A stretch of DNA of 36,698 nt from Candidatus Woesebacteria bacterium (GTDB lineage Bacteria; Patescibacteriota; Microgenomatia; UBA8517): assembly GCA_016181165.1 (NCBI GenBank), contig JACOZU010000003.1:1-36698 (forward strand), in the 5' to 3' direction. Position 1 is the first letter of the stretch; the number at the start of each line of letters is the position of its first letter. This document shows, piece after piece, positions 26-31,155 of this stretch. Position numbers and translations under genes: made by a program. The notes beneath the pieces are model-generated. The model did no database searches, was not told the DNA's origin, and saw only the letters and a list, made by a program, of their open reading frames with translations.

Positions 26-205
26 ATGAAAGTTCTGGTTACTGGCGGGGCAGGTTTTATCGGGTCTCGTGTTCAGAGGTTACTCCTTGACCAAAAACAT
101 CAAGTAACAGTTATTGATGATCTATCAAAAGGATATAAAAATCTTGTAGAACTTATTACCAAAGCCCATCTTGATGGTTTTTATTTTAAGTTTGACTATT
201 TTTGA
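26..205 (+). pseudogene. N-terminal remnant (59 codons) of an NAD-dependent epimerase/dehydratase (GalE-like); only the first Rossmann beta-alpha-beta survives
   Basis: ATG at 26. Translation [42 protein letters not shown]... is the canonical SDR/GalE N-terminus ([10 protein letters not shown] glycine loop, acidic end of beta2 VIDDL). The frame stops at TGA 203-205, whereas family members are roughly 300-330 aa. It falls below the 60-aa ORF-track cutoff. Confidence 0.55.
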
Positions 206-1868: not shown

Positions 1869-3268
1869 ACTTGCCGTTGACGATAAAAGAAACACAGGCG
1901 GGGCTAATGGGGAAAAAGTTCAAGGCGGCCGAGATAGTGAGAGAGTACTTAGAAAGAATTAAAAAACACGACCAGGGAATCAACGCCTTTTTGACGATTT
2001 CGGAAGAGCAGGCTTTTGAGGCGGCGGCTAAGGTCGATCGATTACTTGAAAATTCAGGAAAGGATGCTTTTAGCCAATATCCTTTATTGGGTGTTAGCCT
2101 TGCTCTCAAAGATCTTTTCTTGACTAAAGGAATAAGAACTACGGCCGGTTCAAAAGTTTTGGAATCGTACGTTCCTGCTTACTCGGCCACCGTGGTGACG
2201 AAACTGGAAAAAGCCGGTACTATTTTAATTGGAAAAACCAATTGTGACGCTTGGGCCCACGGAGCCTCCGGCGAAAATTCAGACTTCCGCCCGACAAAAA
2301 ATCCTTGGCAGCCCGAATTTGTTCCGGGTGGCTCCTCAAGCGGTTCGGCCGCGGCCATCGCCGCCAATTTTTCTCTCATCGCAACAGGAACAGACACGGG
2401 GGGATCGATCAGGCAACCGGCGAATTTTTGCGGGGTGGTGGGACTTAAGCCCACCTACGGAGCCGTATCCCGCTACGGAATAATTGCCATGGCTTCATCT
2501 CTTGATTCGGTGGGTCATTTTGCCAGAACCGTTAACGACGCAAGACGCGTTTTTGAGGTTACCAAAGGAGAAGACGGACTCGACTCCACAGTTAAGAATG
2601 CTAGCCCTCAAAAGCCGAAGAGTTCCAAGTTAAGAATAGGGATTCCCAGGGAATATTTTGCCCAAGGACTTGATAAAGAAGTAGAAAAATCGGTTTTTAC
2701 CGCCGCCCATGTTTTAGAAAAAGAAGGGGTTGAACTTGTCGAAGTTAGTCTTCCACACACCAAATACGCAATCTCAGTTTATTACATAGTCCAGCCAGCA
2801 GAAGTTTCTTCAAACCTGGGTCGATACGACGGAATTAGATACGGCAACGGCAGAAATTCTTTCGGGGCCGAGGCAAAAAGAAGAATCATGCTGGGAAGCT
2901 ACGTTCTTTCCTCAGGCTATTACGATGCCTATTATCTCAAGGCGATGAAAGTTCGTTCGAAAATCATTCAAGATTTTGAACAAGCATTCGATAATGTCGA
3001 TGCCATTTTGGCCCCCGTTTCTCCAACGCCGCCTTTTGCCTTGGGAGAAAAAGCTGATAACCCCCTTCAGATGTATCTGGCCGACATTTTAACCGTGGCC
3101 GGAAACTTAGCCGGGATTCCTGGGCTAGCCATTCCCAGCGGTTTTACGAAAAAAGGTCTACCTCTGGGATTTCAGCTTTTAGGGCCTAGGTTTTCGGAAG
3201 AGACACTTTTTTCTCTGGGAGAACGTTATCAGCAATCTACCGATTATCAGCCGAAAGTCGCCATTTAA
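1865..3268 (+). CDS. gatA: Glu-tRNA(Gln) amidotransferase subunit A (amidase signature family)
   Basis: 467 aa. Amidase signature GGSSSGSAAAIA...GTDTGGSIRQPA, the LKDLF...TTAGS motif, and synteny with gatC. Confidence 0.95.
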   Translation: MNLPLTIKETQAGLMGKKFKAAEIVREYLERIKKHDQGINAFLTISEEQAFEAAAKVDRLLENSGKDAFSQYPLLGVSLALKDLFLTKGIRTTAGSKVLESYVPAYSATVVTKLEKAGTILIGKTNCDAWAHGASGENSDFRPTKNPWQPEFVPGGSSSGSAAAIAANFSLIATGTDTGGSIRQPANFCGVVGLKPTYGAVSRYGIIAMASSLDSVGHFARTVNDARRVFEVTKGEDGLDSTVKNASPQKPKSSKLRIGIPREYFAQGLDKEVEKSVFTAAHVLEKEGVELVEVSLPHTKYAISVYYIVQPAEVSSNLGRYDGIRYGNGRNSFGAEAKRRIMLGSYVLSSGYYDAYYLKAMKVRSKIIQDFEQAFDNVDAILAPVSPTPPFALGEKADNPLQMYLADILTVAGNLAGIPGLAIPSGFTKKGLPLGFQLLGPRFSEETLFSLGERYQQSTDYQPKVAI

Positions 3269-3276
3269 TTTTAGCC

Positions 3277-4548
3277 ATGGTTGATATTTTTAAACCTATT
3301 CTAAAAAATTCAAAGTTTGTACATCTTTGGGTATCGCAGTTATTCTCGCAGCTTGCCATAAACATCATGAATTTCCTTTTACTGGTCAGAATTTTTACAA
3401 TAACAGGCTCGACGATTGCCGCCTCCTTACTTTGGGTTTCCTACGCCTTGCCGGCAATATTAATCGGGCCGATAGCGGCCGCTTCTGTCGATATGGTTGC
3501 CAGAAGAAAGATGTTGATGATAACCAACTTTTTACAATCTTTGGTGATATTGCTGTATGCCCTGGCCCACACCGAGCGCTTTTTCCTTCTTTTCGGGGTT
3601 GCCTTCGCCTATTCTTTTCTTAACCAGTTTTATGTTCCCGCCGAGCAGGCTTCCCTACCGGGTATTGTCCCCAAACGTCTTCTGCCTCAAGCCAACAGCC
3701 TTTTTTTTCTTACGCAGCAGTCGGCCCTGATCGCGGGTTTCGGGGTGGCCGGCGTTTTAAATAAATTTTTAGGATTCGAATATTCTCTTTATCTAGTGAG
3801 CCTCTTCCTTTTACTGGCTTTTATCAGCGTCAGTTTCTTACCTGAACTGGCAACCCGAGAAAGATTGCCGGAGAGTTTTGAAAAAGGGATTATTAAGTTC
3901 TTTTCAAGAATAGTCGAGGGTTATAAGTTTATTAAAGAAAATAAAAACATCCTTGCCCCGTTTCTTCTTCTCATGGCGATGCAGATTGCGGCGGCCGTTG
4001 TCGTTGTCAACGTGCCGGTCCTGGCGGTAAATATCTTCAAAATAAGTATCAACTCGGGGGGGCTCCTGATCGTCGTCCCGGCAGGACTCGGAGCCATAAT
4101 CGGCTCGACCTTAGTCTCGAAACTTCTTAAGGGGGGGCTAAGAAAGAAAAGGGTTATTGAGACCTCGCTGTTTTTGATTTCTCTGGCGATACTATTTCTT
4201 GTCTTTATTACCCCCGAAGTTTCCGGCTGGGTCAGAATTTTCATTGGGGCATTGATAGTTATGGTGATGGGGGCTTCCTTTGTCGGAGTGATGATACCTT
4301 CCCAGACTTTTTTGCAGGAGGCTACCCCCGGAGGGATGAGGGGGAGAGTTTTCGGAAACTACTGGTTCCTGGTTACCCTGGCAACGATATTCCCGGTTAT
4401 TTTCTCCGCCACCCTAACCGAGCTTTTCGGTATCCAGTTTCTTTTCGTAATACTGGCCGGACTTGCCCTTAGTGGTTTCATCGTTTCCAAAAAATATGGC
4501 CAAAAGTTCATAGAAAGTGAATTTTCGCTAAACCATGAAGAAGAGTAA
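3277..4548 (+). CDS. MFS-type transporter (about 12 TM)
   Basis: 423 aa and highly hydrophobic, with about 12 predicted TM segments and the MFS loop 2-3 motif-like DMVARRKML. It overlaps the gatB start by 14 nt. Confidence 0.8.
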   Translation: MVDIFKPILKNSKFVHLWVSQLFSQLAINIMNFLLLVRIFTITGSTIAASLLWVSYALPAILIGPIAAASVDMVARRKMLMITNFLQSLVILLYALAHTERFFLLFGVAFAYSFLNQFYVPAEQASLPGIVPKRLLPQANSLFFLTQQSALIAGFGVAGVLNKFLGFEYSLYLVSLFLLLAFISVSFLPELATRERLPESFEKGIIKFFSRIVEGYKFIKENKNILAPFLLLMAMQIAAAVVVVNVPVLAVNIFKISINSGGLLIVVPAGLGAIIGSTLVSKLLKGGLRKKRVIETSLFLISLAILFLVFITPEVSGWVRIFIGALIVMVMGASFVGVMIPSQTFLQEATPGGMRGRVFGNYWFLVTLATIFPVIFSATLTELFGIQFLFVILAGLALSGFIVSKKYGQKFIESEFSLNHEEE

Positions 4549-5881
4549 CCAGCTTCGCAAGAATAACCAGCTACGCTATAAAAATTTCACCGCCGTCATT
4601 GGCCTAGAGGTTCATATTGAGCTTTCCACCAAGAGCAAAATGTTCTGTGGTTGCTCGGCTGACCATTTCGGCAGGCTCCCCAATACCCAAGTTTGTCCTG
4701 TTTGTTTGGGCCTTCCCGGGGCCCTCCCTTATGTCAATAAGGAAGCCCTCTTATCAACCCTAAAACTGGGCCTTGCCTTTGGCGCCCAAGTCAACAATTT
4801 TTCCAAGTTTGACAGGAAACACTACTTTTATCCCGACCTACCCAAAGGCTATCAAATTAGCCAGTATGATATTCCGCTCTCCCAAGGGGGGAAAATTGGA
4901 GAAATTAGAATTAGAAGGATTCACCTTGAAGAAGATACGGCCAAACTCGTCCACCAAACGCTTGACGGCAAAAAAGTTTCCTTAATTGACTTTAATCGAA
5001 GCGGCGTACCCCTGGTCGAACTGGTCACCGAGCCCGATTTTAACGACCCAAAGGACGTTGTCGGGTTTGTTAAAGAAGTTCAGTTAATCGCCAGGTATTT
5101 GGGAATTTCTTCTGCCGACATGGAGAAAGGCAGTATGCGCCTTGAAGCTAATGTTTCGGTTGCCAAAGACGCTAAAGTTCCCGACTACAAAGTCGAGCTC
5201 AAGAACATCAATTCTTTTAAGTTTTTAGAGAAAGCGATCGTTTTGGAAATTGCTAGACAAATAAAACTGATTACCTCGGGGGAGGCGGTGGTTCAAGAAA
5301 CAAGAGGCTACGATGAGGCCAAAGGGACCACTTTTTCCCAAAGAACAAAGGAAGAGGCCCAAGACTACCGTTATTTCCCCGAGCCGGACATTCCTCCTTT
5401 GAGATTTTCAGACGAGCTCGTTAAAGAAATTAGCCGGTCCCTGCCTGAGCTTCCAGACCAAGTCAGAAAACACCTAATAAGTGAGTACGGGGTAAGAGCC
5501 GATTATTCGGAGATTATCCTCGCCGATAGAAAAAGAGTCGAATTCTTTGAAAAGGCCGCGGGGCTGGGAAGAGAAGAAAATATCTCGCCAACGCTCATTG
5601 CCGAACTGATGGTTAATAAAAACATGGACAAAGATTTTCCGGAAGCGACGGGCTTAATTAAAAGAATTCTTGAACTGACCCGGAGGCAATACGCTAAAGC
5701 CAACGCTGTCGAAAAGGCGGTCAAAAAGGTGGTCAGAGAGAATCAGAAACCGGTTAACGACTATGGCCAAGGCAAGGTAGCCGTCTTAGGGTTTTTGATC
5801 GGCTTGGTTCAAAAGGAACTCAAAGGAAAGGGAGATTCCAAGATGATTAAAGACTTACTTGTTGTAGAATTAGAGAAATGA
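4535..5881 (+). CDS. gatB: Asp/Glu-tRNA(Asn/Gln) amidotransferase subunit B
   Basis: 448 aa with GLEVHIELSTKSKMFCGC, KFDRKHYFYPDLPKGYQISQ, HLEEDTAK and DYRYFPEPD, all hallmark GatB/GatE motifs. Confidence 0.95.
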   Translation: MKKSNQLRKNNQLRYKNFTAVIGLEVHIELSTKSKMFCGCSADHFGRLPNTQVCPVCLGLPGALPYVNKEALLSTLKLGLAFGAQVNNFSKFDRKHYFYPDLPKGYQISQYDIPLSQGGKIGEIRIRRIHLEEDTAKLVHQTLDGKKVSLIDFNRSGVPLVELVTEPDFNDPKDVVGFVKEVQLIARYLGISSADMEKGSMRLEANVSVAKDAKVPDYKVELKNINSFKFLEKAIVLEIARQIKLITSGEAVVQETRGYDEAKGTTFSQRTKEEAQDYRYFPEPDIPPLRFSDELVKEISRSLPELPDQVRKHLISEYGVRADYSEIILADRKRVEFFEKAAGLGREENISPTLIAELMVNKNMDKDFPEATGLIKRILELTRRQYAKANAVEKAVKKVVRENQKPVNDYGQGKVAVLGFLIGLVQKELKGKGDSKMIKDLLVVELEK

Positions 5882-20282: not shown

Positions 20283-21940
20283 ATTCTGATAAATCCACTA
20301 AATTTGTCTGCCTCGTTGTCCTTGACGGCTGGGGAATTTCGGCGCCGGGGCCTGGAAACGCCATTTCTCTGGCAAACACCGTGAATATGAATAGATTTTG
20401 GGCCTCCTTCCCGCACACCCAATTAGACGCATCGGGTGAGGCGGTCGGTCTTCCCCGGGGTGAGGCGGGAAATACGGAAACGGGACACCTTAACTTGGGG
20501 GCCGGCCGAATTGTTTATCAGGACCTGGCTCGAATAAACATGTCTATCGCTGATGGCGCCTTTTTAAAAAATCCGACTTTACTAGCTGCCATTGAACACG
20601 CCAAAAAAAATAACTCAAACCTTCACTATCTGGGCTTAATCGGTGCAGGCGGAGTTCATTCAAACCTTGAACACCTGTATGCTCTTATTCAACTTGCCGC
20701 CCAGCAATCTTTCAAAAACGTCTATCTTCATTTATTCACCGACGGGAGGGATTCTCCCCCGACCTCAGCCAAAACATACATAAATTCGGTCAGAGAGGTA
20801 ATTGCACGGGAGGGAGTCGGGGCTATCGCCTCTCTGATGGGAAGATACTGGGCAATGGATAGGGACCTCAGGTGGGACAGAACCGAAAGGGCTTATCTGG
20901 CTTTAACGAAAGGCCAAGGGCATCTGGTTAAAACGCCCGAAGAAGCATTAGATATGTCCTATTCCCAAGGCAAAACCGACGAGTTTATAGAGCCAAGCAT
21001 TATCACAAATTCGGAAGGTACTCCCATAACCTGGATTAAAAATGGAGATGCAGTCATTTTTTTCAATTTCAGGATAGATCGGCCCAGACAACTTTCGCGA
21101 GCATTCATTTTTAAGGACTTTACCAAGGCTAATTTAGATTTTGGATACGATCCGTATCTTGTTAAGTATGCGAAGAAGCACGAGGTTGAACTGCACCCAG
21201 TGCAGGAACCTTTCTCGCGGGGACCCCAGTTGCAAAATCTTTTTTTTGCAATGATGACCGACTATGGAAAAACCCTGCTAGAAAACGGAGCCAGGGTAGC
21301 CTTCCCCCCAGAAATAGTCGACATGCCTTTAGGCAGGGTGATTGCGAAAGCCAAAAAAAAGCAGCTGAGAGTGGCTGAATCGGAAAAGGAAAGATTCGTC
21401 ACTTTTTATTTCAACGGCCGGCAGGAAACGGCTTTTGAGGGGGAAGACAGATTCATTACTTCCTCGCCAAAGGTAGCCACCTACGACCTAAAACCGGAAA
21501 TGTCAGCCAGGGAGCTCACCGATTCTTTACTGGCTAAATTAAGAGAGGAAAATCAGCAGTACTCTTTTATACTGGTCAACTTTGCCAATCCCGATATGGT
21601 CGCCCACACCGGCAGCATCGGCCCGGCGGTCAAGGCCTGCGAAGTGGTGGACGAATGTGTTGGAAAAATAACCAATACGGTTCTTGCCTACGGAGGCAGT
21701 TTACTGATTACGGGAGACCATGGAAACGCCGAGGAAATGATCGACGCCCAGTCGGGGGCAATCGAAACCGAACACTCAACCAACCCGGTACCCTTTATCA
21801 TTGTTGCAAAAGAGTATCTGGGAAACCCGTTGAATCTCCCGGCAGGAATTTTGGCCGACGTTGGCCCGACGGTTCTGGCTCTTCTCGGGCTTCCCCAGCC
21901 TACCAGCATGACCGGAAGAAACCTGTTAGAATCTCTCTGA
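20279..21940 (+). CDS. gpmI: 2,3-bisphosphoglycerate-independent phosphoglycerate mutase
   Basis: 553 aa. LVVLDGWG, GNTETGHLNLGAGR, HLFTDGRDSPP, NFANPDMVAHTG and ITGDHGNAE are iPGM metal and catalytic motifs. ATGA overlap with eno. Confidence 0.9.
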   Translation: MNSDKSTKFVCLVVLDGWGISAPGPGNAISLANTVNMNRFWASFPHTQLDASGEAVGLPRGEAGNTETGHLNLGAGRIVYQDLARINMSIADGAFLKNPTLLAAIEHAKKNNSNLHYLGLIGAGGVHSNLEHLYALIQLAAQQSFKNVYLHLFTDGRDSPPTSAKTYINSVREVIAREGVGAIASLMGRYWAMDRDLRWDRTERAYLALTKGQGHLVKTPEEALDMSYSQGKTDEFIEPSIITNSEGTPITWIKNGDAVIFFNFRIDRPRQLSRAFIFKDFTKANLDFGYDPYLVKYAKKHEVELHPVQEPFSRGPQLQNLFFAMMTDYGKTLLENGARVAFPPEIVDMPLGRVIAKAKKKQLRVAESEKERFVTFYFNGRQETAFEGEDRFITSSPKVATYDLKPEMSARELTDSLLAKLREENQQYSFILVNFANPDMVAHTGSIGPAVKACEVVDECVGKITNTVLAYGGSLLITGDHGNAEEMIDAQSGAIETEHSTNPVPFIIVAKEYLGNPLNLPAGILADVGPTVLALLGLPQPTSMTGRNLLESL

Positions 21941-21957
21941 ACGGAAGGTTGTTATTC

Positions 21958-22584
21958 ATGGAAGCTATCACCAATTTTTTTGTCGATAATCTCACCTCGC
22001 TGATTAGTACTTACGGAGTTGGGGCGGTCTTTGTCCTTATGACTTTGGAATCCGCCCTTGTTCCAATCCCGTCCGAGGTTACCATGCCCTTTGCCGGATT
22101 TTTAGCGGGCAGGGGGATATTGGACTTCTGGCTGGTTGTTTTTATTGGAGCCCTGGGAAATTTAGCTGGATCTCTTCTCGCCTACTGGCTTGGTTTTGCT
22201 AAGGGCGAGGCGTCGGTGAGGTTTGCAATTAGAAAATGGGGTAAATGGCTTTTAATGAGGGAGGAAGAATACGACAAGGCAAAAGCCTGGTATATAAAAT
22301 ACGGTCAGGCCGTAACCTTTACCTCAAGACTTCTGCCCATTGTCAGGACTTTCATTTCACTTCCGGCTGGTATTGCCAAAATGAACCTGACTTACTTTTC
22401 TGCCCTAACCTTTATAGGTTCCTTTGTTTGGTCCGCCTTCCTGGCCTGGTTGGGACTTAAACTCGGACAAAACTGGCTCGCCATCGAGCCTTATTTTAGG
22501 AAGTTTCAAATTGTCATCGTCGGACTGGGGGTTTTAGCCGCTTTCTTCTACGTTAGGACCCACGTTAAAAGGCGTCGCGCCTAA
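21958..22584 (+). CDS. dedA: DedA/SNARE-associated family membrane protein
   Basis: Starts at ATG 21958 (MEAITNFF...). The ORF-track start at 21655 is an in-frame read-through overlapping gpmI. ESALVPIPSEVTMPFAGFLAGRG plus LLPIVRTFISLPAGIAKM are typical DedA motifs. Confidence 0.8.
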   Translation: MEAITNFFVDNLTSLISTYGVGAVFVLMTLESALVPIPSEVTMPFAGFLAGRGILDFWLVVFIGALGNLAGSLLAYWLGFAKGEASVRFAIRKWGKWLLMREEEYDKAKAWYIKYGQAVTFTSRLLPIVRTFISLPAGIAKMNLTYFSALTFIGSFVWSAFLAWLGLKLGQNWLAIEPYFRKFQIVIVGLGVLAAFFYVRTHVKRRRA

Positions 22585-23201
22585 TTTCTTCCGTACCTTC
22601 GGATTAAACCGACCACTTTTCCTTGAATTCTGACTTTTTTGACGAAGATTGGGCTCATTTTGGCATTGGCCGGCTCAAGCCTGATTCTGGTTGCCTCTTT
22701 AAAGAATCTTTTTAAGGTGGCCATGCCGTTGTCAAGGAGGGCGACGACTATTTCTCCGTCGGTTGCATTATCCGTTTGCTCAATAACGACATAATCGCCG
22801 TCCCTGATCTGCTCTTCAATCATGCTCTCGCCGCGAACCTGAAGAACATAAACTCTTTTCGTTTTGGAGGTAAAATCGGCAGGAATGGCCATGGTGGCGT
22901 TGGGGTCGGTGTAGGGTTCAATCGGGGCCCCGGCCGCAATAAAGCCCAAAATGGGCACAGCCATCCCTTCTTCCTGAAAGCTGACCGGACCGGTGATATC
23001 AATGGCTCGAGTTTTCCCTTGTTTTCTTTTTATTAGACCCTTTTCTTCGAGGGCGGCCAGGTGTTCGTGGACGGTAGCTAGGGAAGAGACGCCGATGGCC
23101 TCGGCAATTTGTCTCAAGGTGGGAGCGCTACCCGTTGCCTGGATATGCTGCTTAATAAAATCTAAAATTTGTCCTTGTCTTTTGTAGATAATCGGAGCCA
23201 T
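22581..23201 (-). CDS. lexA: LexA repressor (S24 self-cleaving peptidase)
   Basis: Winged-helix N-terminus (GSAPTLRQIAEAIGVSSLATVHEHLAALEEKGLIKR), cleavage-site-like IAAGAP, catalytic Ser in VRGESM and Lys in GKVVGLIRR. ATG 23201 is preferred, because the ORF-track TTG at 23237 coincides with a perfect TTGACA -35 box. Confidence 0.9.
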   Translation of the reverse strand: MAPIIYKRQGQILDFIKQHIQATGSAPTLRQIAEAIGVSSLATVHEHLAALEEKGLIKRKQGKTRAIDITGPVSFQEEGMAVPILGFIAAGAPIEPYTDPNATMAIPADFTSKTKRVYVLQVRGESMIEEQIRDGDYVVIEQTDNATDGEIVVALLDNGMATLKRFFKEATRIRLEPANAKMSPIFVKKVRIQGKVVGLIRRYGRN

Positions 23202-23208
23202 ATATTTC

Positions 23209-23237
23209 AAAATACAAACAAAACCCGAAGCTGTCAA
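23209..23237 (-). promoter_or_regulatory. Putative lexA promoter: TTGACA, 17-nt spacer, TATTTT, then 7 nt to ATG (leaderless geometry)
   Basis: The minus strand reads TTGACA gcttcgggttttgtttg TATTTT gaaatat ATG. There is no Shine-Dalgarno between the -10 and the ATG. Confidence 0.4.
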
Positions 23238-23260
23238 GACCCAAAATTAACCCAATGCTA

Positions 23261-23269
23261 TGGTAAACT
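23261..23269 (+). promoter_or_regulatory. Putative uvrB extended -10 promoter (TGgTAAACT), 7 nt upstream of ATG
   Basis: TG at 23261-23262, TAAACT at 23264-23269, the 7 nt gcttaat, then ATG 23277. No Shine-Dalgarno is present. Confidence 0.35.
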
Positions 23270-23276
23270 GCTTAAT

Positions 23277-25085
23277 ATGAAATTTAAAATTGAGTCCCGT
23301 TTTAGCGGGAAAACTTTTACAATGGCCAATGTGATTGAAAGGTTGCAAAGGCCGACTTTAATCATTTCCCACAATAAAACCCTGGCGGCCCAGCTTTATC
23401 AGGAACTTCGGGATTTCTTTCCGGATAATGCCGTCTCCTACTTTGTCTCCTACTATGACTTTTACCAGCCCGAAGCTTATATCCCTTCAACCGATACTTA
23501 TATCGAAAAAGACTCGGATATCAACGAACTGATCGATAAGCTTAGGCTGGCTGCAACCACCAACCTTTTAACGAGGAAGGATACAATAGTCGTTGCCTCT
23601 GTTTCCTGCATCTATAACATCGGCTCCCCTCGGGAATACGGCCACTTTGTTTTTGAATTTAGAGAAGGAATGAGAGCAGAGAGAAAGCAGATAATCGACA
23701 GACTCATCGATTTGCAATACGAGCGTGGCGACTTCGGCTTTCATCGAGGAACATTTAGGGTCAGGGGCGATGCCATCGACATCTACCCTTCATATCAGGA
23801 CGAGGGGGTTCGAATAGAACTGAGGAGAGAGACAATCAAGAAGGTCTCCCTGATCAATACCGTTACCGGGAAAACCACGATTGGTTGGTTAAAGAATTTT
23901 ATTCTCTACCCGGCCAAACACTTCATCACCGACCCGGCCAAGCATCAATCTAGCTTCGATGAAATTAGGACGGATTTGCAAAAACAGCTAGCCAAGTTTA
24001 AAAAAGAAGGCAAACTTTTGGAAGCTCAAAGACTGACCCAAAGAGTCAATTACGACCTAGAGATGATTCAAGAAGTTGGCTATGTTAAAGGAATTGAGAA
24101 CTATTCAAGGTATTTTGACGGCCGGGCTCCGGGGGATGCCCCTTATTCTCTTCTTGACTACTTCTCGGCCCCATATGCTCGCGACTGGCTGGTCATCGTT
24201 GATGAGAGCCACATGACTTTCCCTCAAGTTAGAGGGATGTATAACGGCGACTTAGTAAGAAAGAAAACCCTTGTTGATTATGGTTTTAGACTGCCGGCGG
24301 CCTTGGACAATCGACCTCTAAGGTTTGAGGAATTTATGAGAAGAATTCCCAATTTCATTGCCACCAGTGCCACACCGGCTGAGTGGGAAATATCCATGGC
24401 CAAGGGCAAGCTCACCCAGCAGCTTTTAAGACCAACCGGAATTCCGGACCCGGAAGTAGAAATACGCCCGACCAAAAATCAAGTAGCTGATGCCTATTTG
24501 CACTCCGACGTTAAAACTCTTGATCGGGGAGACATTTTGGACGACTTAAGGCTGGGAAAATACGATGTTTTGGTTGGAATCAATCTTCTTAGGGAGGGAC
24601 TCGACCTTCCCGAAGTTTCTCTTGTGGCTATTCTTGATGCGGACAAAGAAGGGTTTTTGCGTAGCGACGTAACACTCATTCAAACGATGGGTCGAGCCGC
24701 CAGACACGCCCAAGGACGGGTAATTATGTATGCCGACCGAATTACTGGAAGTATGAGGAAGGCCTTGAGCGAAGTCGAAAGGCGCAGGAAGTATCAGACA
24801 AAAATGAATAAAAAATACGGAATTACGCCAAAATCAATCGAAAAACCCATTCGCGAAAAGCTAATTGAAAAAGAGGAAGAAACGGCAGTCGAAAAATTGT
24901 TTGGAAAGAAAGAGTCGACCTTGATGAAAGTCCCGCACCTTGACCTGGACGGATTAACGCCGATGGACAAAAGAAGGCTTGTCTTAAGTCTCCGTCGAGA
25001 GATGCTTTTGGCCGCGCAGGACTTAAACTTCGAACTGGCAGCGGAGATAAGGGATAAGATAAAAGGAATTAGCTTTGTTAATTAA
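23277..25085 (+). CDS. uvrB: Excinuclease ABC subunit B carrying two in-frame internal deletions relative to canonical UvrB (possibly non-functional)
   Basis: 602 aa from ATG 23277. It is collinear with E. coli UvrB across SGKTFTMANVI, NKTLAAQLY, YFVSYYDFYQPEAY, DESH, GFRLPAALDNRPL, VGINLLREGLDLPEVSLVAILDADKEGFLRS and the C-terminal UVR domain. About 31 aa are missing between codons 9 and 10, and about 40 aa are missing after codon 406. Confidence 0.85.
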   Translation: MKFKIESRFSGKTFTMANVIERLQRPTLIISHNKTLAAQLYQELRDFFPDNAVSYFVSYYDFYQPEAYIPSTDTYIEKDSDINELIDKLRLAATTNLLTRKDTIVVASVSCIYNIGSPREYGHFVFEFREGMRAERKQIIDRLIDLQYERGDFGFHRGTFRVRGDAIDIYPSYQDEGVRIELRRETIKKVSLINTVTGKTTIGWLKNFILYPAKHFITDPAKHQSSFDEIRTDLQKQLAKFKKEGKLLEAQRLTQRVNYDLEMIQEVGYVKGIENYSRYFDGRAPGDAPYSLLDYFSAPYARDWLVIVDESHMTFPQVRGMYNGDLVRKKTLVDYGFRLPAALDNRPLRFEEFMRRIPNFIATSATPAEWEISMAKGKLTQQLLRPTGIPDPEVEIRPTKNQVADAYLHSDVKTLDRGDILDDLRLGKYDVLVGINLLREGLDLPEVSLVAILDADKEGFLRSDVTLIQTMGRAARHAQGRVIMYADRITGSMRKALSEVERRRKYQTKMNKKYGITPKSIEKPIREKLIEKEEETAVEKLFGKKESTLMKVPHLDLDGLTPMDKRRLVLSLRREMLLAAQDLNFELAAEIRDKIKGISFVN

Positions 25086-25092
25086 AAGTAGT

Positions 25093-25311
25093 ATGCTATT
25101 ATCAAAATATATGGAGGATTTGGAAGCTAAATTTATCAAGAAATATGCAAATTTGCCTTGGGGAGCCAGAGAAGAAATTATAGCTGTTATTGATGGCAAA
25201 AATTTTACCTGGAACTCTGCTAATATAGAGATAGATAGAGGGAAAGAAGGCCCCACCGAAATAGGTCAGAAAATACTAAAACAATTACAAGACCTGAGAA
25301 TTTTTGAATGA
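25093..25311 (+). CDS. Small hypothetical protein, cassette ORF1 (66-78 aa depending on start)
   Basis: The ORF is open from TTG 25075, with ATGs at 25093 and 25111. TGcTATTAT at 25094-25102 followed by 8 nt and ATG 25111 suggests a leaderless start at 25111. The stop overlaps the next start (ATGA 25308-25311). No family was recognised. Confidence 0.45.
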   Translation: MLLSKYMEDLEAKFIKKYANLPWGAREEIIAVIDGKNFTWNSANIEIDRGKEGPTEIGQKILKQLQDLRIFE

Positions 25312-25595
25312 CAAGCCAAAGAGAAAAAGACGTACTAAAAGACGAGAGATTGAGACTGCAAGTTCAGAAACTAGTAATAGCAAGGCTTTCTGCTATTCCG
25401 AAAGATTTACAGATATCCGTTGGCTCCAAACAATATACGGTAGAGGACCTCCAAAAATTCGTAAAAGAGGATAACGAAATAGGAAGACAGCTGATGGAGA
25501 GTCAACTAAAGTACCTTAGAGAAATGGCTTCTGGGAAAATTTATAAGATGTGGTCAAATGAGCAAGACAATACTTATAACCAGGCCAAATTATGA
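25308..25595 (+). CDS. Small hypothetical protein, cassette ORF2 (95 aa), apparent distant paralog of ORF1
   Basis: ATGA-coupled to ORF1. It shares the pattern I-x-V-x-x-K-x-[FY]-T ... EIG-[QR] ... L with ORF1 (IAVIDGKNFT...EIGQKILKQL versus ISVGSKQYT...EIGRQLMESQL). Confidence 0.5.
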   Translation: MTSQREKDVLKDERLRLQVQKLVIARLSAIPKDLQISVGSKQYTVEDLQKFVKEDNEIGRQLMESQLKYLREMASGKIYKMWSNEQDNTYNQAKL

Positions 25596-26205
25596 GGAGA
25601 AGTTAAATTTTTTGTTCTTTTGGTCACAAACCGTTGTTGACTTAGCCAGAAAAAAGAATTTTGTTGTTTTAGACCTTAGATCAGAAAAATCTAACAAGAA
25701 AGACTTTGATAGCTATATTAAAAAGAATAATCCTTCCTTTGTGTTTTTCAACGGCCACGGATCAGCTCGTTTAATTACTGGTCATAACGACGAACCTCTT
25801 GTCTGTGCAGATAAAGATGAAGACCTCCTGAAAGATAAAATTGTATATTCTAGAACTTGTGAAAGCGCCCTTGTTCTTGGTAACCAATGTGTAAAAAACG
25901 GCACTAAGACTTTTATTGGTTACATAAGCCCCTTCGTTTTTTTCTACTCTAAGTCTTCTGTCTTGCACCCTCTTGGGGATGACATATGCAGGCAGTTCCT
26001 AGAACCCACTAACTTAATAGCAATTAAACTGCTTAAGGGCCATACCTCTAGAGAGGCAAACGAATATTCAAAAATAGCAATGTTAAAGAACGTTTTTTCA
26101 ATGTTGTCAAGTGCGTCAACTTTAGGTGAAAAGACCGTCGCGTCGTTCTTGTGGGGAAATATTACGAGTCAGGTGTTAATTGGTAATCCTAATGCAATGA
26201 TATGA
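25558..26205 (+). CDS. Hypothetical 215-aa protein, cassette ORF3; putative clan-CD (caspase/legumain/gingipain-like) cysteine peptidase fold
   Basis: Alternating strand/helix pattern: TILITRP, FVVLDL, FVFFNGHGS (His67, 25756-25758) and KIVYSRTCES (Cys101, 25858-25860). Compare legumain ..TDHGS.. / ..EACESGS.. and gingipain ..TGHGSE... No signal peptide. It overlaps ORF2 by 38 nt. The confidence refers to the gene being real; confidence in the fold call is about 0.35. Confidence 0.55.
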   Translation: MSKTILITRPNYEEKLNFLFFWSQTVVDLARKKNFVVLDLRSEKSNKKDFDSYIKKNNPSFVFFNGHGSARLITGHNDEPLVCADKDEDLLKDKIVYSRTCESALVLGNQCVKNGTKTFIGYISPFVFFYSKSSVLHPLGDDICRQFLEPTNLIAIKLLKGHTSREANEYSKIAMLKNVFSMLSSASTLGEKTVASFLWGNITSQVLIGNPNAMI

Positions 26206-26232
26206 TTCTTCTCGTCGGATTTAACTAATCTT

Positions 26233-26241
26233 TGTTATAAT
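26233..26241 (+). promoter_or_regulatory. Putative uvrA extended -10 promoter (TGtTATAAT)
   Basis: TG at 26233-26234 and TATAAT at 26236-26241, followed by a 34-nt leader with a GATGGGG SD-like element 7 nt before ATG 26276. Confidence 0.35.
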
Positions 26242-26275
26242 CATCATACCGTCGGTAAGCCGATGGGGCGTTTGC

Positions 26276-29235: not shown

Positions 29236-31155
29236 ATGCTCAAACGGAACGTTGTTATTCAGAAGGTTTTTCTTTTTTTTATCTTGTCGGTCCTTTTTCT
29301 AATCTTCCCCAAACATTCTTTGGGAACAGGAGAATTTGCCACCGATGTCACCGTCAACTATCAGGTCGAAGAAGAAGGAACGACGCAAGTTTCCCATACA
29401 ATCTCTCTGGAAAACCTTTTTTCCGACCTCTATGCGACTTCATATACTCTGGTTTTAGACAACATCGAGCCCAAAAAGATAGCGGTTTTTGAAGGCTCAA
29501 AGTCCTTACCCTTTCGATTATCTTCCGAGGGAACACAAAATTCCCTGACGATCGATTTTCCGGAGGCTCTGGTTGGCAAGGGCAAGAAAAGGATTTTTAC
29601 GGTTTTATTTGAGGAGACCGGCTTTGCGGCAAGAACGGGAGAGGTCTGGGAGATTTCCATTCCAAGGCTGTCTCCGGACGAGAATTTCAGAAGCTACAAT
29701 GTCAGCTTTTCGGTTCCCGCTACTTTCGGAACCGAAGCCTATCTTTCCCCGAAACCTAAAGAAGTTGGGGGCCAAGAAGGAAGAGTGATTTACTTTTTTG
29801 ACAAGGAAGATGTCGAAAGAACCGGAGTCACCGCCGGCTTCGGCGCTTTTCAAGTCTTTTCCTTTACTCTCAATTACCACTTGGAAAACCCACTCAGCAA
29901 GAGCGCCAAGGTCGATATTGCCCTTCCCCCCGATACCGCCTTGCAGCGTGTCTATTATCAGGTCGTCAACCCCAAACCGGAGAACATTTATGTCGACTCC
30001 GACGGCAACTGGCTGGCTACCTACTTGCTTAAAAGTCGGGAAAGAATAGACGTTGAGGTCAAAGGGGTCGTTCAGATCTTTGCCGGACCCCGACCTTTTC
30101 CCATGCCCACCCAAGAAACACTTCAAGACAACCTTAAGGCGACAAATTATTGGCAAAGCTCTGACCCTAAAATAAGAAGTCTGGCGGGTAGCCTTGGCAC
30201 TGCCGAAGCTATCTATAACTATGTCTGGCAGAATCTTGCCTACGATTACGAAAGAGTTAAGCCTAATGTAGAAAGGTTAGGGGCTCTCAAGGCCCTAGAA
30301 TCTCCGACAAGCGCCATCTGCATGGAATTTACCGACCTTTTTATCGCTCTGGCGCGTTCTGCCGGAATTTCGGCCAGAGAAATCAACGGCTATGCCTACA
30401 CCGAAAACCCGGAAATCCAGCCTTTGAGTTTGGTTGCTGATGTCCTTCACGCCTGGCCCGAATATTGGGACGCCACCGAAGCAGCCTGGATTCCCATCGA
30501 CCCAACCTGGGCGTCAACCACGGGGGGGGTTGATTTCTTTTCAAAACTCGACTTAAGGCACTTTACTTTCGTTATCCACGGGGTTGACCCCCAGAGGCCG
30601 TATCCGCCGGGGTCTTATAAACTTGGGCCCAATCCACAGAAGGACGTCTTCGTCAGTTTCGGCACTCTTCCCGAAGAGCGGGTCAGCCATCCCGAAATTA
30701 CGGTCGTCACCAAAAGGCCCATCCCTTTTGGTCCCACCAGGCTTGATATCACCATCAAAAATCCCGGCCCGGTTGCGCTCTATAACCTCACTCCTGCCGT
30801 TTCCTTTAACGCAGGTGCGGTCAAGGCGGAAACCATTGAGGTTCTCCCCCCAAATGCCCATTATGAAATCGAGTCGGCCGTTCCTTATAGTTTCCTGGGG
30901 AGAAATACCCCCGAAGTCGTCACGGTTCTTGTTGCCGATAGCCAGGTTCAGGTTCCGACCAACAAAAACCAAATAATTCTTGAAAGTGCGGTTGTCCTTC
31001 TTTTGGTCCTTCTCATTGCCGTTCTGGCGATTTTAATCAAATTCAAAAAGATTCAAATTTCCAAATTTAGCGCTAAAATACCAATGCTAATTGCCCGAGT
31101 AAAGAAAAATGACACAGATACCGACTCTCAAGCGCCTATCGTTAAGAAATCTTAA
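29236..31155 (+). CDS. Envelope-anchored transglutaminase-like cysteine protease-fold protein
   Basis: N-terminal signal/TM (FLFFILSVLFLIFP), a large beta-rich N-domain, the transglutaminase core triad context (SAICMEFTDLF, HAWPEYWD, WIPIDPTW), and a C-terminal TM (VVLLLVLLIAVLAILI) with a basic tail. Confidence 0.85.
   Translation: MLKRNVVIQKVFLFFILSVLFLIFPKHSLGTGEFATDVTVNYQVEEEGTTQVSHTISLENLFSDLYATSYTLVLDNIEPKKIAVFEGSKSLPFRLSSEGTQNSLTIDFPEALVGKGKKRIFTVLFEETGFAARTGEVWEISIPRLSPDENFRSYNVSFSVPATFGTEAYLSPKPKEVGGQEGRVIYFFDKEDVERTGVTAGFGAFQVFSFTLNYHLENPLSKSAKVDIALPPDTALQRVYYQVVNPKPENIYVDSDGNWLATYLLKSRERIDVEVKGVVQIFAGPRPFPMPTQETLQDNLKATNYWQSSDPKIRSLAGSLGTAEAIYNYVWQNLAYDYERVKPNVERLGALKALESPTSAICMEFTDLFIALARSAGISAREINGYAYTENPEIQPLSLVADVLHAWPEYWDATEAAWIPIDPTWASTTGGVDFFSKLDLRHFTFVIHGVDPQRPYPPGSYKLGPNPQKDVFVSFGTLPEERVSHPEITVVTKRPIPFGPTRLDITIKNPGPVALYNLTPAVSFNAGAVKAETIEVLPPNAHYEIESAVPYSFLGRNTPEVVTVLVADSQVQVPTNKNQIILESAVVLLLVLLIAVLAILIKFKKIQISKFSAKIPMLIARVKKNDTDTDSQAPIVKKS

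Follow-up and report, generated by a model that had tools for sequence, protein, structure and literature searches.

A predicted minimal clan CD cysteine peptidase encoded with two small partner proteins in CPR bacteria and DPANN-type archaea

The three-gene cassette and its partner proteins

The window, the whole stretch of 36,698 nucleotides that was analysed, carries in the gap between uvrB and uvrA, with lexA nearby, a cassette of three small genes on the same strand, ORF1, ORF2 and ORF3 (Table 1). The earlier note had listed ORF3 as an open reading frame of 215 aa, and the frame is real, running from ATG to stop opposite a strand that is dense in stop codons. The mechanical call of ORF1 opens at a TTG at position 25075, within the end of uvrB, and we place its start further downstream (Table 1). 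ORF1 and ORF2 overlap by 4 nt (ATGA), and ORF2 and ORF3 by 38 nt. A weak promoter-like site upstream of ORF1 is treated here as a lead, since 4 such sites occur in the region and 3.7 are expected from shuffles.

Table 1. Features of the cassette, in positions of the window
Feature	Position	Strand	Basis or remark
GC trough over the three-gene cassette	25000-26250		35-40% vs 44-52% in the flanks (composition profile)
Promoter-like site TTGTTA-16-TG-TATTAT	25075-25102	+	Ends 9 nt before the ORF1 ATG; weak, a lead only
ORF1, partner protein of ~66 aa	25111-25311	+	Likely start ATG 25111, by alignment with the 66-aa homologue of locus L003
ORF2, partner protein of 95 aa	25308-25595	+	Homologue directly upstream of ORF3 in 34/34 loci
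ORF3, predicted stand-alone clan CD (caspase/gingipain-fold) cysteine peptidase, 215 aa	25558-26205	+	ATG-to-stop ORF, AF2, Foldseek
Glu13 codon, candidate S1-pocket or third catalytic residue	25594-25596	+	Helix 1 N-cap; Asp in 119 and Glu in 22 of 141
His67 codon, predicted catalytic His	25756-25758	+	N-G-H-G motif right after strand 3 (residues 61-65); 141/141
Cys101 codon, predicted nucleophile	25858-25860	+	Right after strand 4 (residues 95-99); 141/141
Asp141 codon, candidate S1 specificity residue	25978-25980	+	End of the loop after strand 5; Asp in 139/141

Homologues of the three genes follow one another directly, in a constant order and on one strand, in 25 of 25 loci, and the triad was found again in 8 of 9 further loci. 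This brings the total to 33 of 34 loci, which belong to CPR bacteria and DPANN-type archaea; in the exception (L029) an ORF2 homologue precedes ORF3 and ORF1 is not among the genes called. Natural triads number more than 400, and one natural ORF1-ORF2 fusion was found (P0280). Start and stop codons within the triad overlap or lie within a few nucleotides of each other in most loci, and the flanks contain no further conserved gene family in the loci examined. The identity matrices of the three proteins co-vary (Mantel r 0.71-0.84, 0/2000 permutations), a co-divergence that is also expected for three linked genes under plain vertical descent.

ORF2 is modelled by AF2 as a helix, a beta-hairpin and two helices followed by a disordered C-terminal tail, with pLDDT above 90 in the core and below 50 in the tail, and its homologues range across loci from 75 to 95 aa with variable disordered tails. 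Arg26 of ORF2 is invariant and Lys60 nearly so, and in ORF1 the invariant residues are F20, P28, R32, W46 and E52. Searches of Pfam and the PDB with both partners returned no significant match, nor did a fold search with the ORF2 model (best match prefoldin beta, E 0.6, TM 0.35), and neither partner shows likeness to known antitoxins. The median pI of the two partner families is acidic to neutral (5.3 and 6.5) and that of the protease basic (8.7). With regard to a possible paralogy of the partners, hhalign aligned ORF1 and ORF2 in register, yet with no more than P 3e-4 and a probability of 18-39%. The order helix-strand-helix-helix and weak matches to Trans_reg_C, HTH_5 and sigma-E profiles had suggested that ORF1 and ORF2 could be winged-helix or OmpR-like DNA binders, an idea that was dropped because the ORF2 model has no significant fold match and the pI of either family is acidic to neutral.

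Predicted fold and conserved residues of ORF3

The AF2 model of ORF3 (pLDDT 97.4, pTM 0.93) has core strands at residues 4-9 (TILITR), 36-41 (VVLDLR), 61-65 (FVFFN), 95-99 (IVYSR), 118-122 and 205-209, the first four of which coincide with the hydrophobic segments that had been read as strands from the sequence. They alternate with helices, among them residues 14-22 (helix 1), 88-91 and 142-159; a small beta section formed by strands 72-74 and 80-83 lies between b3 and helix 88-91, and three additional helices lie between b5 and b6. Clan CD peptidases are defined by a central sheet of six strands, b1-b6, in the order 2-1-3-4-5-6 with five major helices, and by the succession b1-a1-b2-a2-b3-(small beta section)-a3-b4-a4-b5-helices-b6, with a His after b3 and a Cys after b4 (McLuskey & Mottram 2015, PMC4357240). 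The secondary-structure order of the ORF3 model agrees with this definition (PMC4357240), including the small beta section that separates b3 from a3, and so do the predicted sheet and helices, the strand order being taken from Foldseek superpositions.

A Foldseek search of the PDB with the ORF3 model gave 13 matches at E<=1e-3, every one of them a clan CD peptidase. The best was the SAVED-CHAT protease 8tl0 (E 1.6e-6, TM 0.60), RgpB (gingipain R) was matched with TM 0.58-0.61 (4ief/1cvr), and caspase-11/-4 was also among the top matches, with separase, caspase-1 and C11 proteases next. Rossmann-like and periplasmic-binding folds rank only beneath these, with poor TM and rmsd.

The earlier note had recognised in ORF3 the His...Cys signature of clan CD peptidases, made up of a G-H-G-S stretch (residues 66-69, His67 included) and of Cys101, 34 residues downstream, and both the fold and the conservation of the family bear this out. 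Among 141 cluster representatives with a mean column identity of 36%, the sole invariant columns are H67, G68 and C101, and the same three are invariant in 37 closer homologues. The neighbours of His67 in the N-G-H-G motif are conserved too (G68 in 141/141, G66 in 140/141 and N65 in 135/141), and residue 100, just before Cys101, is Ser, Ala or Thr in 138/141 representatives. His67, followed by Gly68, stands at the C-terminal end of b3, and Cys101, with a small residue before it, at that of b4, as is characteristic of clan CD. From this placement in the model the two side chains are predicted to lie close together, because b3 and b4 neighbour each other in the clan CD sheet order. An hhalign comparison with caspase-3 paired H67 with the His of SHG and C101 with the Cys of QACRG, with an E of 0.12 that is not significant. 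As judged from the alignments, the His...Cys signature is far beyond chance, and ORF3 is very probably a genuine, if much reduced, relative of caspases and gingipains.

The absence of a signal peptide is likewise confirmed, since strand 1 already starts at residue 4 and leaves no room for one. The statement that ORF3 has no partner domains applies to the protein itself, which has no extra domains, and needs amendment for the locus, where two obligate partner genes accompany it. ORF1 and ORF2 had been named before merely as possible substrates.

In clan CD the dyad faces a substrate cleft whose S1 pocket is built by L1/alpha1, L4 and L5. Two acidic positions are candidates for determining the specificity of ORF3, Glu13 and Asp141, the latter located in the model between strand 118-122 and helix 142-159. 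In characterised clan CD enzymes the corresponding alpha1 acids are RgpB Asp163 and MALT1 Asp365, and the residues on loop L5 are MALT1 Glu500 and caspase-7 Arg233 (PMC4357240). Glu13 would be the counterpart of RgpB Asp163 and MALT1 Asp365, and Asp141, on L5, would take the position of MALT1 Glu500 and caspase-7 Arg233. Asp/Glu13 and Asp141 thus appear to sit where gingipain R, MALT1 and metacaspases put their S1 acids, and with acids at both S1 positions cleavage after Arg or Lys at P1 is predicted rather than after Asp. A correspondence between Arg9 and the S1 Arg of caspases, from which Asp specificity would follow, was also considered. Arg9 is just 81% conserved, is often lost jointly with Asp39 in bacterial-type loci, and is set by hhalign at the end of b1 and not at the L1 Arg, and the pair D/E13 and D141 was preferred instead.

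Family range and genomic setting

The ORF3 family comprises about 2,600 clusters at 50% identity, nearly all of them stand-alone proteins of about 215 aa (almost all 205-220 aa), and it appears to be confined to CPR/Patescibacteria and DPANN-type archaea. A family so large and so strongly conserved would also fit a lineage-specific housekeeping role. Searches of ORF3 against Pfam, NCBIfam, PADLOC and PHROGs profiles and PDB sequences returned nothing significant. Peptidase_C25 (PF01364) does not match the ORF3 of the window even at E<=10; it is the commonest Pfam match in relatives, found in 6 of 141 (best E 7.2e-7) and in 1 of 37 of the closer set (E 2.4e-4), so that on the sequence evidence the relation of ORF3 to Peptidase family C25 is one of remote homology, not membership. 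CHAT (PF12770) has no match in the window ORF3 and matches 2 of 141 relatives at E ~0.01, and the likeness to CHAT proteases displayed by the model is structural only. Peptidase_C14 was matched neither by the window ORF3 nor, among the top families listed, by its relatives. None of the three proteins matched the PADLOC-DB v2 defence models at E<=1, and all three were unrecognised by PHROGs. A search of IMG/VR with two peptide patterns found no viral carriage, and we found in published full text no description of such a protease family or three-gene operon. The best reading of these searches together with the model is that ORF3 would found an unannotated family of clan CD.

The cassette differs in composition from its surroundings, with 36.3% GC in the window vs 47.4% in the flanks, and its GC lies under that of the flanks in 21 of 25 loci (mean -4.7 points, up to -15, Wilcoxon p 1.6e-4). 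A composition rich in Lys, Asn and Ile could account for part of the low GC. The site occupied in the window is itself variable: across 68 related loci with uvrA next after uvrB, 42-1792 nt separate the two genes; the gap is essentially empty in 11, and the cassette is present there in L050 alone, in addition to the window and L003. Other gaps contain a SocA/Panacea antitoxin, DUF2283 or a HicA toxin (E 1.3e-4, below Pfam's cut-off). Elsewhere, genes for AbiEii, MazE, ParE, a serine recombinase, Bro-N and AAA_14/DUF4143 are adjacent to or near the cassette, AbiEii directly adjoining it in L026, and there are loci where it stands amid housekeeping genes (rplT/infC/smpB in L033, tig-clpP in L034). 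Toxin-antitoxin (TA) genes are common in CPR/DPANN-type genomes generally, and for this reason the evidence from the neighbourhood is soft. A functional tie to nucleotide-excision repair or the SOS response, suggested by the vicinity of uvrB, uvrA and lexA, was rejected because only 3 of ~70 related uvrB-uvrA loci carry the cassette, which occupies different sites in other lineages.

In 4 of 24 genomes a frameshift disrupts ORF3 although the partners are retained, one such form occurring on 39 contigs; the frameshift of the UBA8517-type allele lies in an A-run. The hotspot polymorphism, the GC deviation and these frameshifts point to a dispensable accessory element, and the triad shares with TA modules a compact operon, variable accessory sites and presence/absence polymorphism.

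Proposed role and comparison with known systems

We propose that ORF3 would be a cytosolic, single-domain clan CD cysteine peptidase with the catalytic dyad His67/Cys101, encoded as the third gene of a translationally coupled module after ORF1 (~66 aa) and ORF2 (75-95 aa). The module would be inherited and transferred as a unit into variable accessory-gene positions, which in the lineage of the window is the uvrB-uvrA gap. The small acidic-to-neutral partners may bind the basic protease and keep it inactive, like an antitoxin or a trans-acting prodomain and possibly through the disordered tail of ORF2 or an invariant Arg, or they may instead serve as dedicated substrates of ORF3. Loss or cleavage of a partner would then release the protease to cut cellular targets, and the module would work in the manner of a three-part toxin-antitoxin system or an abortive-infection switch, its genes being ordered as in omega-epsilon-zeta. 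We infer the catalytic activity of ORF3, its P1 specificity and the interaction between partners and protease. Taken whole, the explanation that a new clan CD family resides in a mobile tripartite module that works as a TA-like or proteolytic switch seems to us fairly probable. Its least secure step, the TA-like role, is tentative when taken alone and falls short of an even chance. With similar conviction, the triad can be seen as an unrecognised tripartite conflict/addiction module, spread horizontally between CPR and DPANN, in which the minimal caspase-fold protease is toxic and the two novel-fold mini-proteins are inhibitor, sensor or substrate.

Legumain, GPI8 and PorU-type clan CD enzymes ligate or transpeptidate, and ORF3 could in the same way process, ligate or transpeptidate ORF1 and ORF2 into a mature complex with a housekeeping or symbiosis function rather than act as a toxin. 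Such a maturation system would suit the three-gene linkage and translational coupling, the size and good conservation of the family in minimal-genome organisms and the loci amid housekeeping genes (L033, L034); the variable disordered tails of ORF2 could be trimmed, and Arg32 of ORF1 and Arg26 and Lys60 of ORF2 could act as P1 sites. However, in the partner model the invariant basic residues fall within confidently folded helices, and the insertion/deletion polymorphism at uvrB-uvrA, a hotspot common to TA genes, the GC deviation of the cassette and the repeated ORF3 frameshifts with persisting partners are at odds with it, and we regard it as unlikely. We are more doubtful about a defence effector, in which ORF1 and ORF2 would be a sensor/adaptor pair and infection would switch on the protease against host or viral targets, as in the analogous CHAT/Craspase, SAVED-CHAT and caspase-like proteases with gasdermin or TIR partners. 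A SAVED-CHAT protease is indeed the closest structural match of ORF3, the neighbourhoods are accessory and TA-rich, with AbiEii adjacent in L026, and the distribution of the cassette looks patchy and horizontally transferred. Against this, no sensor domains, nucleotide-signal generator or gasdermin-like effector lie nearby, PADLOC gave no match, the partners are tiny and have no recognisable binding domains, and the loci seen show no enrichment beside CRISPR or restriction genes.

The remaining alternatives concern the protein rather than the module. The established features of ORF3 are a fold and a dyad, and the sequence similarity of the window protein to true peptidase families is marginal, which would be compatible with a non-peptidase Cys-His enzyme on a caspase-like scaffold, such as an amidase, an acyl-transferase or a de-modifying enzyme acting on a small-molecule or protein modification. 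This is very improbable, given that ORF3 has conserved acids at the canonical S1 positions and that all characterised clan CD members with an intact His-Gly...Cys dyad are peptidases or transpeptidases (PMC4357240). Alternating beta-alpha units are common in proteins, and weak PDB sequence matches to a response regulator and an aminotransferase could be taken to indicate a generic flavodoxin- or Rossmann-like protein with GHG...C by coincidence. Those matches are, however, non-significant (E 0.06-0.3), Foldseek at E<1e-3 ranks clan CD only, with TM up to 0.61, and the only invariant positions of the family are the dyad and G68; this alternative is effectively refuted.

Clan CD proteases, including caspases, metacaspases, separase, gingipains and CHAT proteases, act as key switches in cell death, in immunity and in the cell cycle, and prokaryotic members have recently been found as effectors of immunity linked to CRISPR, TIR and gasdermin. 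CPR bacteria and DPANN archaea are two radiations of ultra-small symbionts, and to our knowledge almost none of their lineage-specific biology has been experimentally characterised. The ORF3 family would be an addition to MEROPS clan CD and to the Pfam clan Peptidase_CD. With little beyond a catalytic core and abundant in metagenomes, ORF3 could serve as a very small natural model for the restraint and release of caspase-fold enzymes. The triad, common to both radiations, is compact, easily synthesised and amenable to work in E. coli, and its study might uncover a novel mechanism of addiction or defence, or else a processing pathway linked to the ultra-small symbiotic lifestyle.

Among known enzymes, gingipain R (family C25; RgpB 1cvr, 4ief) shares with ORF3 the caspase-haemoglobinase fold, the N-G-H-G and (S/A)-C motifs after strands 3 and 4, and an acid just before alpha1 (Asp163, as residue 13 of ORF3). 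Unlike gingipain R, ORF3 is encoded with two small partner genes, is half the size and would be cytosolic, with no Ig-like domain, prodomain, signal peptide or T9SS C-terminal domain. The CHAT proteases (SAVED-CHAT 8tl0 and the TPR-CHAT/Csx29 of Craspase) are, like ORF3, prokaryotic, cytosolic members of clan CD, and they have co-encoded small partners or substrates, as ORF3 would have in the proposed model. In contrast to these systems, ORF3 has no SAVED, TPR or other sensor domain and no CRISPR or cyclic-nucleotide genes nearby, and to judge by sequence and fold searches, neither ORF1 nor ORF2 is related to Csx30, Csx31 or PCaspase. The caspases, metacaspases and orthocaspases (C14) have the same six-strand/five-helix core, His after b3, Cys after b4 and small beta section, but ORF3 has no Peptidase_C14 match and no evident inter-subunit linker or p20/p10 processing site; its S1 positions are acidic where caspases have an Arg/Gln/Arg triad, and Asp specificity is therefore unlikely.

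The organization of the triad is reminiscent of tripartite TA operons. Two small upstream genes precede a larger enzyme gene with tight overlaps, as in omega-epsilon-zeta and paaR-paaA-parE, the small partners are acidic and the enzyme basic, and the hotspot is common to Panacea and HicA modules. It differs from these operons in having no homology to known toxin, antitoxin or regulator families and partners that are not recognisably DNA-binding, and we know of no clan CD protease that acts as a type II toxin. If the conflict/addiction reading is true, no simpler regulated caspase-like switch would be known, and the triad would be the first TA-like system that is based on a protease and common to the two domains.

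The ORF3 gene and its predicted fold

It was suggested in the earlier note, from sequence alone, that ORF3 carries a caspase/legumain/gingipain-like signature built from four hydrophobic segments (TILITRP, FVVLDL, FVFFNGHGS and KIVYSRTCES), His67 and, 34 residues later, Cys101. Every one of these features is present in the translated ORF, and the opposite strand of the same interval has many stops. The window protein matched nothing in NCBIfam, PADLOC, PHROGs or PDB sequences, and its single match in Pfam (E 0.11) was spurious.

Coordinates of the features discussed (window nucleotides, or protein residues where stated)
Feature	Position	Strand	Details
DedA/VTT-domain ORF	21655-22584	+	
lexA	22581-23237	-	
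uvrB	23169-25085	+	
Weak promoter-like site	25075-25102		
uvrB-uvrA gap	25086-26275		
ORF1	likely ATG 25111, stop 25309-25311	+	66-78 aa; ATGA overlap with ORF2
ORF2	25308-25595	+	95 aa; 38-nt overlap with ORF3
ORF3	25558-26205	+	ATG start, 215 codons
His67 codon	25756-25758	+	
Cys101 codon	25858-25860	+	
Transglutaminase-core ORF	29236-31155	+	639 aa
ORF3 hydrophobic segments	residues 4-10, 35-40, 61-69, 94-103		in the order named in the text
ORF3 model	residues 4-209		b1 4-9; helices 14-22, 24-32; b2 36-41; helix 47-57; b3 61-65; small hairpin 72-74/80-83; helix 88-91; b4 95-99; helix 107-113; b5 118-122; long loop; helices 142-159, 164-182, 189-204; b6 205-209
ORF2 model	residues 13-74		helix 13-28; hairpin 35-38/41-44; helices 45-53, 57-74; then disordered tail

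The AlphaFold2 model of ORF3, for which an alignment of 37 homologues served as input, was very confident (mean pLDDT 97.4, pTM 0.93), and all 13 of its Foldseek matches in the PDB at E<=1e-3 were clan CD peptidases. The SAVED-CHAT filament 8tl0 ranked first (E 1.6e-6, TMq 0.60); gingipain R (4ief/1cvr, TMq 0.55-0.61), caspase-11 and caspase-4, then separase, procaspase-1 and C11 clostripain-like enzymes were also matched, and unrelated alpha/beta folds (periplasmic binding proteins, aminotransferases) ranked later, with low probability and rmsd >10 A. McLuskey & Mottram 2015 (PMC4357240) define clan CD by five helices around a sheet of six strands (order 2-1-3-4-5-6), by a small beta section that separates b3 from a3, and by a dyad whose His lies at the C-terminal end of b3 and whose Cys lies at that of b4; the ORF3 model matches this definition in both topology and dyad placement. 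His67 and Cys101 would be juxtaposed, since both cap neighbouring parallel strands. The caspase-like clan CD fold proposed earlier is therefore supported by the model and its structural matches, and we take ORF3 to be a putative clan CD enzyme, minimal and cytosolic, whose His-Gly...Cys dyad is intact.

A word-seeded search returned 41 ORF3 homologues, nearly all of them 'hypothetical proteins' of 212-221 aa from Patescibacteria-type sources, and L6, T8, R9, P10, D39, N65, G66, H67, G68, Y97, C101, G121, Y122, D141 and G209 were invariant in the alignment of 37. An exhaustive profile search over 1.84 billion cluster representatives yielded 2,609 proteins at E<=1e-3, of which 1,392 also reached E<=1e-10 and 401 reached E<=1e-30; among the 150 relatives listed, almost all were stand-alone proteins of 200-220 aa. 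When 140 representatives were aligned with the window protein (n=141, mean column identity 36%), H67, G68 and C101 were the sole invariant columns, followed by G66 and G75 (140/141 each), D141 (139/141) and N65 (135/141). The two residues singled out in the earlier note are thus clearly kept, being invariant in both alignments.

Among these 141 sequences, Peptidase_C25 was the Pfam family matched most often (6, best E 7.2e-7) and CHAT was matched by two; these weak matches agree with the predicted fold. An alignment of the ORF3 profile with human caspase-3, not significant (E 0.12), points the same way, with FNGHG placed opposite LLSHG and YSRTCES opposite IIQACRG. Judged by the sequence profiles of C25, C14 and CHAT, ORF3 belongs to none of these families, and we therefore prefer to regard it as a new clan CD family, in a new tripartite architecture.

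Determinants of the S1 pocket in clan CD have been assigned to the alpha1 N-terminus/L1 (RgpB Asp163, MALT1 Asp365, TbMCA2 Asp95, caspase-7 Arg87), L4 and L5 (MALT1 Glu500, caspase-7 Arg233) (PMC4357240). In all 141 aligned sequences, residue 13 is either Asp or Glu; in the ORF3 model it caps the helix at 14-22, and D141, which is nearly invariant, lies where the loop between b5 and a5 ends. This pattern resembles Arg/Lys-specific members more than caspases, and we infer a predicted cleavage specificity for Arg/Lys. R9 was our first idea for a mimic of the caspase S1 arginine, but it was downgraded because it is only 81% conserved (114/141), tends to be missing along with D39 where the locus is of the bacterial type, and falls at the end of b1 in the alignment.

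The three-gene module and its partner proteins

Scanning the GTDB species representatives with a sequence pattern gave 23 ORF3 loci, from CPR bacteria (Woesebacteria, Roizmanbacteria, Saccharibacteria, Taylorbacteria) and from archaea (Woesearchaeota, Nanoarchaeia, Altiarchaeota, one Marsarchaeota MAG and one Methanosarcinales MAG). When all ORFs of these loci were searched with iterated HMMs, ORF1, ORF2 and ORF3 proved to be adjacent, co-directional and in the same order in every locus, with junctions that overlap or lie a few nt apart in most of them. The same triad was found in 8 of 9 further loci from exact-protein look-ups; in the ninth (L029), ORF2 and ORF3 were called and ORF1 fell outside the search. 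Clustering of all flanking ORFs revealed no conserved neighbor besides the triad. Pairwise-identity matrices of the three proteins correlate (Mantel r 0.71-0.84, 0/2000 permutations), and therefore the genes diverge together, as linkage alone would also produce. The cassettes form a bacterial-type and an archaeal-type group, with ~28% ORF3 identity between them. A bacterial-type cassette (LVTRP...; ORF2 tail KEGDIYKK) lies in the Marsarchaeota bin (L013) and an archaeal-type cassette in the non-DPANN Methanosarcinales bin (L014), which indicates cross-domain transfer or else mis-binning.

Profile searches returned more than 400 homologues each of ORF1 and ORF2, stand-alone 'hypothetical proteins' of 59-92 aa except for one N-terminally extended ORF and one natural ORF1-ORF2 fusion; neither family matched Pfam or PDB sequences. 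The fusion, a metagenomic protein of 122 aa (P0280), joins an ORF1 that lacks the last helix to the whole of ORF2. This hints at joint action of the two small proteins, although the contig is 1 kb long and the fusion could be an artefact of deletion. Invariant residues are F20, P28, R32, W46 and E52 in ORF1, and V23, R26, L27, S37, G39 and G59 in ORF2. By hhalign the two align in register at P 3e-4 only, and they are possibly paralogues. The AF2 model of ORF2 (pLDDT 82 overall, >90 in most of the core) gave nothing significant against PDB and BFVD, the best match being prefoldin beta (E 0.6, TM 0.35). Its identification as a winged-helix protein was not supported, the model having no significant fold match.

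Genomic setting and mobility

The cassette lies within the order lexA (-), uvrB, cassette, uvrA, transglutaminase-like membrane protein and uvrC, on a GC trough (35-40% vs 44-52% in the flanks). Across 25 loci, cassette GC is 30-45% whatever the host GC (27-51%), and it is below that of the flanks in 21 (mean -4.7 points, up to -15, Wilcoxon p 1.6e-4). We gathered 80 related metagenomic loci (L035-L114) via the UvrB C-terminus (62-87% identity). In the 68 with uvrA after uvrB, the gap between the genes spans 42-1792 nt; it is essentially empty (<=83 nt) in 11 and holds the triad in one (L050), as it likewise does in the window and in L003, a Woesebacteria UBA8517 locus. The remaining gaps hold changing small genes on either strand, many of them ORFs without family; among the occupants are a SocA/Panacea antitoxin (E 8.5e-23), DUF2283, an SDH/ClpP-like protease and two matches below Pfam's cut-off, LPD3 and a HicA toxin (E 1.3e-4). 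The gap is an insertion hotspot in this Woesebacteria-like lineage. Elsewhere, the triad adjoins AbiEii (L026) or MazE (L028), lies a few kb from ParE, serine recombinase, Bro-N or AAA_14/DUF4143 genes, or in some cases sits among housekeeping genes. Two peptide patterns searched against viral contigs (IMG/VR) picked up no copy.

ORF3 is frameshifted in 4 of 24 genomes (L003 type, L022, L023 and L024). In L003 (GW2011_GWA1_40_43, ~5155-5170), the homologue has one additional A in an A-run (TATATAAAAAAAGAAC), where slippage could occur. The frameshift splits ORF3 before the NGHG motif, and the resulting 154-aa fragment (P0010) is found on 39 contigs; it is therefore a genuine allele.

Around the cassette, the window uvrB is 68% identical to the L003 copy (2507-4525), lacks the conserved N-terminus up to Walker A (the alignment begins at SGKTFT, residue 46) and shows an in-frame gap of 39 residues within helicase domain 2. 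The mechanical start of this uvrB overlaps lexA, which is on the opposite strand, and the gene may be decaying or its start mis-called. The LexA homologue, with S24 peptidase and LexA DNA-binding domains, is divergent from uvrB, an arrangement that points to a regulon of the SOS type in this CPR genome. Transcription of the cassette would be read-through from uvrB, unless the weak promoter-like site is used. The transglutaminase-core protein encoded between uvrA and uvrC has hydrophobic N- and C-terminal segments, and its gene is an odd insertion in the uvrABC string; the same arrangement seems to occur in L003, where a 632-aa ORF after uvrA was recognized by position alone. The DedA/VTT-domain ORF has an N-terminal extension of ~100 residues, oddly rich in Arg, Gly and Pro, which overlaps the 3' part of the phosphoglycerate mutase gene, and the listed start of the ORF is probably too far upstream.

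Possible roles of the module

ORF3 would supply the enzyme of a three-gene module that is strictly conserved, horizontally mobile and common to CPR bacteria and DPANN archaea. Our literature search found no description of the ORF3 family or operon, and the triad is of interest because it is tiny, abundant, unannotated and directly testable, and crosses two domains of life.

Median pI values are 6.5 and 5.3 for the two partner families, which makes them acidic to neutral, and 8.7 for the protease, which is basic. Such a charge pattern is common where an inhibitor is paired with its enzyme or an antitoxin with its toxin, and is uncommon among proteins that bind DNA. Because of this charge complementarity and the genomic behavior of the cassette, the mechanism that we judge most likely is a partner-controlled protease, in which ORF1 and ORF2 would control ORF3 within a toxin-antitoxin-like module or, in a broader sense, a proteolytic switch. 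The chief rival reading is that the triad serves as a dedicated maturation system, with ORF1 or ORF2 as the substrate of the protease, and a related alternative is a defense-effector role for the triad. Control of the protease by its partners remains the reading that we favor, and the gene order of the triad resembles that of omega-epsilon-zeta.
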